Sequence record: PQ435408.1
Length of the DNA stretch: 64,000 bases
Direction: 5' to 3' (one strand)
Source of the DNA: Escherichia phage vB_EcoP_CU10EC
The position numbers were made by a program, and so were the translations under genes. Below are positions 22,396-23,696 of the stretch, piece after piece. The notes under the pieces were generated by a model that searched no databases, was not told the origin of the DNA, and saw nothing but the letters and a program-made list of their open reading frames with translations. How positions within the stretch are numbered: the first letter of the stretch is position 1; each line of letters starts with the position of its first letter.

Positions 22396-22559
22396 TGATT
22401 GCCAGGGATTCCACCTGGCTCCATCTGTTTTTATAGTCACTCAGATATCGTCTGGACTTGTTGTGGTAGCCGGTACTGATCTCCGGCATAAGGCGCTTAT
22501 TCGGCGGCGTCGAGCTTGCTTATTCGCTTGAGCCATCCTCGTGAGTCAGCCACGTCCCA

Positions 22560-22990
22560 CTGCGCATCAGCCTGCACATTCACCACAACGGAAAGAGCAC
22601 TGATGCGCTCACTTGGGACTCCTTAGCCATAACCCACGGGCTTCTGGTACACCAATGTTCTTACCTGTTGTGTGTTGTGGAGTGACGCACCATCTCACTC
22701 TTGAATGTTAACCCATCCCCAGCCCCACAACATATGCTACGGTTAAGATTATTGCGTATGCTGTATGGTCTTGCTGATCACAACGGTAAGAGCACTGCAG
22801 CAACAATGTTGGATTTGGTATGCTAAGCCAGTCAACATTCAGTACTCTTGCCTGTTGTCTTCCCCGTTTCTAATACACGGACGGGGACACTCCATAAAAC
22901 TATCAAAGAGTGCACTATTGCTCTCAATTGGGACTACTTAGCCCTAATCCGCAGACTTTGGGTACAGTAATGCACTCATTGTTAGGATGT
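22560..22990. repeat. Three diverged ~95-nt non-coding repeat units
   Basis: Shared blocks CACAACGG-AAGAGCACTG, TTGGGACT-CTTAGCC and CTT-CCTGTTGT between units; no ORF >60 aa on the sense (-) strand. Confidence 0.5.
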
Positions 22991-23696
22991 CATAATAGGG
23001 GAGGGAGGACAAGTCTCCCTTTACCCTATGATTTAGTTTACATGTAAGACCTAACATCTCGGTGTTGGATGAATAGCGTAATGATCTATCCGACATTATT
23101 GGTTAATGTTGTGCTCAACATGAGCGTTAGTTGATAAGGGATCTGAAGCCTTATCCCAAAGATACCAACCTTTGGTATATAGCCTAAGATTCAGAAATGG
23201 CCCCTATAGGGAGAGGCCATTGATTAACCCGAATGTTGCTTTACATTTTCTGTGAAAACCCGTTCTTAAAATAGTCTGTCTGACGGATGGGGGGCTACCC
23301 CTAGCGTCAGTGCCATACGGCAAAGATTAAGTTAAGAAAGGTTATGATAGGAGTTCCTATCTCAAAGGATTCTAACAGAACCATTTACGATATTAACTAC
23401 TTACTGTGGAATAATTTATTTCCTCAGCAGGCTCTACACCCAAGAAAAGGCTAACTTTTCCATTTAGTTTTGATTGAACCAATGGACTGGGGAGAGTATT
23501 CCAATCCACTGGTTCGGTTGTTGTTGTTACTCTGGCGGCTTGTCACCACCGTGTTTACCACTGCATTTCCACAGGATAATGACAGTGATGATAAAAGCTA
23601 TGTATGGAGCCGACACGTCTATAATCCTGACTAGTAGTAGCATCAGGACTATAAACACTACCACACCTAGCAGCAGCTTCTGAGCCACCTACCAGA

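Follow-up and report, generated by a model that had tools for sequence, protein, structure and literature searches.

The genome of the Escherichia phage vB_EcoP_CU10EC (sequence record PQ435408.1; the whole stretch of 64,000 nucleotides (nt) analyzed is referred to as the window) contains a gene-free stretch at ~21270–23526, from which an array of structured RNAs, including a scaffold shaped like a transfer RNA (tRNA) with a swappable insert, is most likely made. Copies of this scaffold recur in unrelated phages and prophages, numbering in the hundreds. Positions 23396–21273 of the minus strand most likely form a single RNA-only transcription unit, running from a conserved sigma-70-type promoter to a strong terminator. 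The best-defined part of this array, 22669–22460, consists of a long hairpin (H1-A, in unit A) and a 130-nt tRNA-like pseudoknot domain (hereafter, the domain), which is a conserved, selected fold rather than a decayed tRNA. With confidence slightly above even, we favor the explanation that the array is an RNA-only unit in which the domain is a natural tRNA scaffold that presents a variable cassette and is processed by host enzymes, the cassette acting in trans.

The domain is built from a closing helix (P1), a three-nucleotide linker, a hairpin (P2), the cassette, and a second hairpin (P3), and the GCUGA sequence in the P2 loop pairs with UCAGU in the P3 loop. The single-sequence fold of the domain in the window recovered the same helices. 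Across the family, the plan is P1 (GUGGUG/CACCAC, often of 7–9 base pairs (bp)), the AAU linker, P2 (GCGCA-GGCUGA-UGCGC), the insert, and P3 (GCCGG-AGAUCAGCA-CCGGC), which abuts the 3' strand of P1 (P1'), with the P2 loop complementary to the P3 loop.

The covariation of these helices was tested on 69 distinct sequences, 24 pairs, and 500 shuffles. Paired combinations accounted for 94.4% of the cells, a percentage inflated by the script that located P1 and P3 of the 3' half, which required pairing; P1' was set independently, by its position directly 3' of the conserved P3. Changes on both sides were seen in 13 of the 24 pairs, and the cells with such changes numbered 93, compared to 21.6 expected from the shuffles, none of which gave a value as high. 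When the pairing partners were shifted, pairing dropped to 25–48%. P1 columns 3–9 were paired in at least 59 of the 69 sequences, and the 5-bp P3 is followed by P1' without a linker. In addition, the loop-loop pairs, which had no role in locating the 3' half, switched from CG to UA in 10 sequences and from UA to CG in 11, across differing P1 and cassette backgrounds, the variants including a change from CU:AG to UC:GA as well as CC:GG and UU:AA versions. G·U and U·G pairs were also present, and they fit a transcript of the minus strand only. A hammerhead ribozyme, considered on account of the CUGAUG in the P2 loop, was rejected because this sequence co-varies (GUCGAU, GCCGAU) with the P3 loop.

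A covariance model (R1) built from 41 full-length copies identified a copy in the window at 74.5 bits (E 7e-18), the sole one there. R1 also matched the copy of Klebsiella phage P01 (26.2 bits, E 1e-4), in which P3 is a textbook T-arm, GUCGG-UUCGAUU-CCGAC, and the P2 loop is GGAAUGG. The 7 bp of P1 and the 5 bp of P3 add up to 12 bp, the length of the acceptor/T-arm stack of tRNA. The AAU linker and P2 occupy tRNA positions 8–9 and the D-arm, the contact between the P2 and P3 loops, a Watson-Crick helix of 5–6 bp, replaces the D-loop/T-loop elbow, and the cassette sits at the position of the anticodon arm. The 12-bp stack, together with the P01 copy with its true T-arm, leads us to read the domain as a tRNA-like scaffold displaying the cassette. 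The Rfam tRNA model (RF00005, 29-bit gathering score) gave no score on the domain, and a permissive cmscan (E up to 10) of 21200–23750 listed the tRNAs at 21548–21703 only. An earlier note on this DNA, made from the sequence alone, had offered degenerate tRNA remnants and a family of phage small RNAs among its candidates. The first holds as far as the tRNA geometry and the R1 link to a copy with a canonical T-arm are concerned, but not as to degeneracy, given the conserved fold and the absence of a score with the tRNA model; the second is supported as to kind by the covariation-backed helices and by a family that spans many unrelated phages.

The domain is not a gene, and its insert behaves as a cassette. 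The conserved halves lie 37 to 187 nt apart, all values modulo 3 being represented without a fixed reading frame. Phage Tyrion annotates an open reading frame (ORF) of 53 amino acids (aa) across the domain, and Pseudomonas phage CF81a has an in-frame TGA there at ~90% nucleotide identity. The spacing in all classes modulo 3 and the TGA of CF81a indicate that the domain is non-coding, and the search of its ORFs returned no PHROG match. Identical inserts were observed behind differing H1 hairpins and P1 helices, and differing inserts within one frame.

The domain is widely distributed. BLAST found pieces 90–98% identical to it in coliphage HC6, in ~47-kb Klebsiella and Salmonella phages, in the P22-like Tyrion and HK620, in CF81a, and in Ackermannviridae. 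Pattern scans of IMG/VR gave in turn at least 120, 38, and 12 contigs, a few of the 38 and 12 being chance matches, and the family overall comprises well over 150 IMG/VR viral contigs. A genome-wide pattern scan gave many chance matches in GC-rich genomes, and copies were counted only when GCCGG...CCGGC and a complementary loop were present. The copies retained are from gamma-proteobacteria (Klebsiella, Citrobacter, Kosakonia, Pseudomonas, and Xanthomonas), beta-proteobacteria (Massilia, Pandoraea, Caballeronia, Thauera, Comamonas, and Chitiniphilus), and alpha-proteobacteria (Rhizobium and Pelagibacterium). Of 5426 complete E. coli genomes, ~150 have the 40-nt core in prophages; the 30 E. coli matches listed all lacked an RNA-gene annotation. 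Because no Rfam 15 model matched in our scans, Rfam-based annotation would miss this family, and literature searches for the motif sequences and phage structured RNA, and for G7C-like non-coding regions, returned nothing and nothing relevant, respectively.

The copies are found in several contexts: tRNA and non-coding RNA islands of lytic phages (HC6, Ackermannviridae); the pR' late leader of HK620, ~70 nt 5' of the terminator tQ and beside Q; separate promoter-terminator units in P22-like prophages, often with a DicF-like hairpin next; and early-operon leaders in Pseudomonas-type temperate phages. The DicF-like hairpins (UUUGGCGGU...ACCGCC, then a U run) lie 3' of the domain in many P22-like prophages (L006 2764–2811, L009, L014, L017, L025, L048, L066, and L143), with an Rfam DicF score of 25.7 bits, which is below the gathering score. 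For one IMG/VR copy (L115), the cassette itself appears to hold a D-arm (GCUCAAUCGGUAGAGC) along with a T-arm (CUGGUUCGAUUCCAG), which would make it a tRNA-like element within a tRNA-like frame. In phage HK022 (L186), a weak R1 match (19.6 bits, E 0.008) was seen at 33581–33692, between the helicase gene and gene Q, with the sequence GUGAAU-GCGAA-GGACGGA-UUCGC; this match may be a diverged member of the family.

Upstream of the domain, the three related repeats of ~95 nt described in the earlier note proved to be real paralogues of ~90 nt. Units A and C align without gaps over 64 nt (77% identity), the stem halves are common to units A and B (95% identity over 19 nt and 92% over 13 nt), and the three-way alignment has a mean column identity of 69%. 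Each of the three folds as one long hairpin (H1), with the closing helix AACAGGUAAGAGCAUUG/CAGUGCUCUUUCCGUU or a variant of it. Unit A together with the domain is 98% identical in coliphage HC6, and unit B has a 96% identical copy in phage Pollock; for unit C, the equivalent hairpin in relatives stands before a tag template like that of transfer-messenger RNA (tmRNA). The pairing of H1 was assessed in 149 distinct loci from other phages, in 52 of which the 10-nt stretch just 5' of the domain had a 10/10 complementary partner, compared to 4 of 745 shuffles. The stem sequences are diverse, e.g., AAGGGAGCUG/CAGUUUCCUU, CAUGAGUAUU/AGUACUCAUG, and GAGCGCUCCG/CGGAACGCUC, and the distal part of H1 is variable, with a T-arm there in some loci.

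The features of the array and its flanks are listed in the table. From 5' to 3', the array consists of the leader, units C, B, and A, the domain, two atypical tRNA-like genes, pieces bearing T-arms, an odd tRNA, and tRNA-Ile. The putative promoter is kept in all eight covering relatives, save one base beside the -10 element in one of them. The leader occurs in G7C-like phages only, unlike the downstream modules; across relatives, both the leader and the tRNA end persist, and the middle (22990–22460) is a mosaic.

The leader holds three of the four perfect hairpins named in the earlier note. For the CTGACG/CGTCAG hairpin (~23281–23310), the outer stem is invariant and the inner GGGG/CCCC stem varies compatibly. 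The GGCC...GGCC hairpin (~23215) is conserved, with one change from U·G to U-A. The ATACCAA-CCT-TTGGTAT hairpin is perfect in the source phage only: all eight covering relatives show two mismatches, and the same eight keep a CCCAAAG/CUUUGGG hairpin that adjoins the site. The fourth, the CCCCG/CGGGG hairpin, is conserved, and a 35-nt piece there matches Klebsiella phage Pylas and Serratia phage Kevin at 100% identity. Three of the four hairpins are thus maintained in relatives. For the spacer module between units B and A, the helices ACGCA/UGCGU and UUAACC/GGUUAA are possible, as read by eye, and related pieces occur at ~21790 of the window and in phage HC6.

The source phage is an N4-like coliphage of the G7C group (Gamaleyavirus) that encodes a virion RNA polymerase of 3487 aa at 8762–19225(+). 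From 19698 on, the genes lie on the minus strand, and the array is read on this strand, as are the flanking genes and tRNAs and as the earlier note had proposed. The array region is 92–96% identical to phages 24-32N, UE-S5a, IME11, and PGN829.1. Its GC content is 0.41–0.49, and the switch in GC skew lies at ~19.2 kb, where the gene orientation flips, with none at the array. No ORF of at least 80 aa was found on either strand in 21267–23696, and the longest ORFs within 22400–23400 (31–79 aa) had no PHROG family match. Positions 22400–23400 contain no credible gene, and the gene-free stretch extends beyond the ~1.1-kb non-coding region first noted.

At the upstream edge, the 53-aa ORF at 23530–23688(-) is a real gene for a small membrane protein (phrog_19025, E 5e-9). 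Among G7C-like relatives, the 14-bp hairpin that follows it shows covariation over its inner 9 bp (GUGGAUUGG/CCAGUCCAU, GUGGGCUUU/GAAGUCCAU, GUGUGCAGG/CCUGUGCAU, and GUCCCCUUU/GAAGGGGAU). The remnant at 23393–23470 is what is left of a gene of ~56 aa (MNKFTIHWLNGK... in relatives), of which the 5' part and the middle are deleted here. This gene is whole in most G7C-like relatives, and its start and middle are gone in the source phage and IME11. Homologues thus encode a protein across this remnant only, not across the repeats.

Features of the array and of its flanks, ordered from 5' to 3' on the minus strand
Feature	Position	Strand	Remarks
14-bp hairpin	23477–23514	-	just 3' of the stop codon of the membrane-protein gene; likely terminator or processing site
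Small-gene remnant	23393–23470	-	alignment with 9 relatives; residual ORF matches phrog_14773 weakly
Putative sigma-70-type promoter	23369–23396	-	TTAATA, 16 nt, TGTTAGAAT (extended -10); promoter scan
Leader with several hairpins	22990–23362	-	G7C-like lineage only, 83–95% identity
Unit C, H1-type long hairpin	22900–22986	-	folds as one long hairpin at minimum free energy, z = -2.7
CCCCG-N15-CGGGG hairpin	22862–22886	-	counterpart of the GGCCC...GGGC pseudoknot-like hairpin 3' of the tag template in relatives
Unit B, H1-type long hairpin	22779–22860	-	ACAACAGGCAAGAGUACUG...CAGUGCUCUUACCGUUGU; fold z = -1.8
Spacer module between units B and A	22670–22778	-	73–92% identity to ~48-kb Salmonella and Klebsiella phages
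Unit A, H1 hairpin	22587–22669	-	abuts P1 of the tRNA-like domain
tRNA-like pseudoknot domain	22460–22589	-	130 nt, fused to unit A
Domain P1	22589–22581	-	pairs with 22468–22460
Domain linker	22580–22578	-	AAU
Domain P2	22577–22562	-	GUGCA-GGCUGA-UGCGC
Domain variable cassette	22561–22488	-	74 nt
Domain P3	22487–22469	-	GCCGG-AGAUCAGUA-CCGGC; abuts P1'
Atypical tRNA-like gene	22327–22393	-	67 nt; read by eye: acceptor UCCGGUG/CGCCGGA, T-arm UCUGG-UUCGAGU-CCAGA, 3' ACCA
tRNA-like gene	22201–22324	-	124 nt; perfect 7-bp acceptor UAUCAGU/ACUGAUA, canonical T-arm, 3' ACCA, ~45-nt insert
Odd tRNA	21703–21631	-	downstream end of the gene-free stretch; Rfam tRNA model
tRNA-Ile(AAU)	21621–21548	-	downstream end of the gene-free stretch; Rfam tRNA model and ARAGORN
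Intrinsic terminator	21273–21304	-	13-bp stem and T run; terminator scan; strong; likely 3' end of the whole array

For the 67-nt tRNA-like gene just 3' of the domain, inspection by eye showed an anticodon-like loop with GCA (Cys) and no D-arm, and neither ARAGORN nor the Rfam tRNA model called it. UE-S5a has a similar copy; the tRNA-Cys annotated in that phage is a different, neighboring 80-nt gene, which is absent from the window. The 124-nt gene was called by ARAGORN as tRNA-Thr(ggt) with a 45-nt insert, only with a lowered threshold and introns allowed, and the overlapping part read in UE-S5a is identical. The relaxed ARAGORN calls were mostly spurious and intron-containing; a "tRNA-Thr with a 767-nt intron" (22327–23187) was rejected because its 3' part closes locally as a tRNA-like gene of its own. 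The tRNA pair at 21548–21703 scored 58.8 and 36.7 bits with the Rfam tRNA model, and ARAGORN reported one tRNA in the window. The AAU anticodon of the tRNA-Ile is unusual, and the same anticodon is found in the unrelated coliphage HC6 (L002 1816–1889), 3' of the same RNA modules.

If the domain is a natural scaffold, the array would be transcribed as one precursor, and host tRNA-processing enzymes would be drawn to it by the tRNA-like frame and by the tRNA-like genes proper. RNase P on the 5' side, RNase E and exonucleases on the 3' side, and perhaps RNase III at the H1 helices would excise the module. The frame would protect the module from decay and display the cassette, which would be the working part and would act in trans on RNA or protein of the host or of a competing phage. 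An engineered tRNA scaffold, which Ponchon and Dardel are said to have described in 2007, reportedly stabilizes inserted RNA in E. coli.

Several points weigh against this explanation. Transcription, processing, stability, and action in trans are steps that we infer from the fold and its setting. As to the fold, the script that required pairing raised the paired percentage given above, P2 itself carries no covariation evidence because all sequences were fetched by exact P2 patterns, and the loop-loop pairing is broken in a few copies (GGAUGA loops, L175). The window copy lacks an anticodon arm, a T-loop consensus (UUCRANY), and a 3' CCA; its P3 loop is AGAUCAGUA and its 3' tail is ACAAG, and a T-loop is found in the P01 variant only. 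Together with the absence of a score with the Rfam tRNA model, these features make the domain tRNA-shaped but not a tRNA, and recognition by RNase P is therefore plausible only. In addition, units B and C have no attached domain, and the domainless units and the lost tag template, which is described below, suggest that parts of the array may be decaying.

Were the scaffold explanation true, phages across Proteobacteria would share a compact tRNA-shaped frame in which the elbow is rebuilt from Watson-Crick pairs and the anticodon arm is replaced by exchangeable cassettes. Such a frame would be nature's equivalent of the laboratory tRNA scaffold and would open a new source of phage RNAs with regulatory or decoy roles, and it would explain the long stretches without tRNA calls in the "tRNA regions" of many phages.

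A less probable explanation, which we nevertheless regard as the closest competitor, is that the domain is an Hfq-dependent base-pairing small RNA (sRNA) of the STnc100/PasD kind, with the cassette holding a seed for host or phage mRNAs. It overlaps the scaffold explanation and differs from it mainly in naming Hfq and mRNA pairing. STnc100 and PasD are prophage sRNAs; PasD, from Hfq RIL-seq (sequencing of ligated, interacting RNAs), has many mRNA partners and adjoins the antiterminator Q (bioRxiv 10.64898/2026.05.13.724894). The HK620 copy of the domain likewise adjoins Q, and the STnc100 consensus is laid out alike (..UGGUG AAU hairpin, variable region, hairpin, CACCA..). In 65 of 131 family copies, a T run lies no more than 130 nt downstream; these T runs and the DicF-like hairpins 3' of many copies also fit an sRNA. 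Conversely, the window copy is followed by a tRNA-like gene, not by a terminator or U tail, and the next strong terminator is that at 21304–21273. At E up to 10, the Rfam STnc100 model (RF02076, 47 bits) did not match the window, nor did it match L002, L005, or L006 at E up to 5, and R1 missed the STnc100 copy at L187:3019–3233. The extreme conservation of P2 and of both loops across alpha-, beta-, and gamma-proteobacteria would be unusual for seed-type sRNAs.

Relatives of the source phage raise a different, doubtful alternative. In IME11, UE-S5a, PhAPEC5, HC6, HK620, phage P01, and Ackermannviridae phages, a tag template like that of tmRNA is preceded by an H1 hairpin or promoter and followed by the domain or a tRNA-like gene (L133 (IME11), L001 (UE-S5a; ~2900–2870, minus strand), L132, L129, L134, L135, L002, L005, and L187). 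The template, AUAAAU|GCA AAC GA..., always has 10 codons, and the tags read ANDDVVLMAA, ANEEAYLMVA, ANEEMYLAVA, ANDEQFLAVA, ANDDLMLMAA, ANEEVYLAVA, and ANDNTFLAVA. Two hairpins come after it, one co-varying and one pseudoknot-like. Templates were present in 24 of 190 loci, and in 17 of these 24 the domain itself is the downstream tRNA-like element. A motif scan of the window found no tag reading frame with a resume codon; the template piece is deleted here, unit C being joined straight to the hairpin at 22886–22862, so that the present array may be a reduced version of a larger system. A literature search for the tag peptide strings gave no match.

The H1 hairpin, template, pseudoknot, and tRNA-like domain could conceivably make up an unrecognized, non-canonical tmRNA of N4-like, P22-like, HC6-like, and Ackermannviridae phages, of which the window would have kept the tRNA-like part only, although we consider this unlikely. 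It is similarly questionable that such an RNA would feed its own 10-residue tag, ending in LMAA, LAVA, or LMVA instead of ALAA, into host ribosome rescue, or block that process. Under this alternative, the array would be the remains of a phage system interfering with or replacing host trans-translation, partly or wholly non-functional since the loss of its template, which we hold to be a minor prospect. In favor of it are the 10-codon template in the nearest relatives (IME11, UE-S5a, and PhAPEC5) and in HC6, HK620, and Ackermannviridae, the synonymous changes that distinguish groups of loci with the same tag peptide, the weak matches of Rfam tmRNA models, aligned on the resume-codon region, and the direct junction of unit C to the hairpin that follows the template in relatives. 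However, P1 co-varies freely and therefore has no fixed CCA or G3·U70, no copy has a chargeable end, and the order of a template followed by a closed tRNA-like domain is not the tmRNA topology. ARAGORN called no tmRNA in the window or in the template loci scanned, these phages have no annotated tmRNA, and many copies of the domain have no template nearby. The tag-template modules of close relatives would link phages to ribosome rescue directly and in a testable manner.

A cis-acting role of the domain, as a leader RNA modifying RNA polymerase and causing processive antitermination as HK022 put does, for read-through of a highly structured, terminator-rich array of RNAs and tRNAs, is improbable. 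The domain often lies in operon leaders of temperate phages and just 5' of terminators, the latter as in HK620, and its strongly conserved P2 and loops across proteobacterial classes would fit a universal host partner such as RNA polymerase; many copies, however, end a transcription unit instead of starting one. The put RNA of ~70 nt, which is located after the PL and PR promoters, has two long stem-loops that form a V and do not pair through their loops, and it binds the beta' zinc-binding domain, an architecture unlike that of the domain (PMC9378689). Motif scans of HK022 found nothing like the domain at the early-operon put positions, the weak R1 match at 33.6 kb being the sole one.

The replication origin with iteron-like repeats proposed in the earlier note, or any other DNA-level site, is very improbable: the region is gene-free, repeat-rich, and downstream of a cluster of replication genes, and the length of a 265-aa ORF at 24696–25493 would fit that of the N4 SSB, but the repeat search found just the hairpin units of 80–90 nt and short repeats at chance level, not short direct binding sites, the compensatory changes and strand-specific G·U pairs point to RNA, the GC skew switches elsewhere, and the modules recur in the HK620 late-gene leader and in tRNA islands of unrelated phages.

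The favored scaffold explanation was further compared with known systems. On the window, Rfam at gathering and permissive thresholds returned the two tRNAs only, with no GOLLD, ROOL, Y RNA, ribozyme, or riboswitch. Three phage RNAs were considered and rejected as counterparts: the phi80 M3 RNA, a known RNase P substrate, is an oop homologue unrelated to the domain; the motif is absent from the P4 CI immunity RNA region; and the HK022 put RNA folds differently and is not located at the motif. GOLLD, ROOL, and the T4 stable RNAs C and D are structured phage non-coding RNAs of unknown function that lie beside tRNA genes. The present array has no Rfam match to GOLLD or ROOL and differs from them in consisting of separable, shuffled modules, not one large fold.

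For STnc100 and PasD, of Salmonella and pathogenic E. coli, comparison by inspection showed a design like that of the domain: a closing helix ending in GGUG, AAU, a hairpin, a variable middle, and a 5-bp hairpin abutting the CACC strand. Both are borne by phages or prophages, and the STnc100 copy shares an Ackermannviridae RNA island with the domain family. The sequences and loops of P2 and P3 differ, the covarying loop-loop helix of 5–6 bp is shown for the domain family only, and this family is spread far more widely, over alpha-, beta-, and gamma-proteobacteria. Since neither covariance model detects the other family, STnc100 is the closest known relative in design, not the family to which the domain belongs.

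The domain also resembles tRNA, the tRNA-like domain of tmRNA, and the bacterial Y RNA YrlA in its coaxial stack of 7 and 5 bp, its 3-nt linker, and the hairpin at the D-arm position that contacts the loop at the T position; one homologous copy has a canonical T-arm and a P2 loop containing GG, and the domain is embedded among tRNA genes. In contrast to these, its common form has no anticodon arm, CCA, or T-loop consensus, its elbow is made of Watson-Crick pairs, and the Rfam tRNA and YrlA models gave no score. By analogy, the design proposed for the domain would be that of the engineered, man-made tRNA scaffold, in which a foreign RNA is placed at the anticodon-arm position of a processed and stabilizing tRNA frame.

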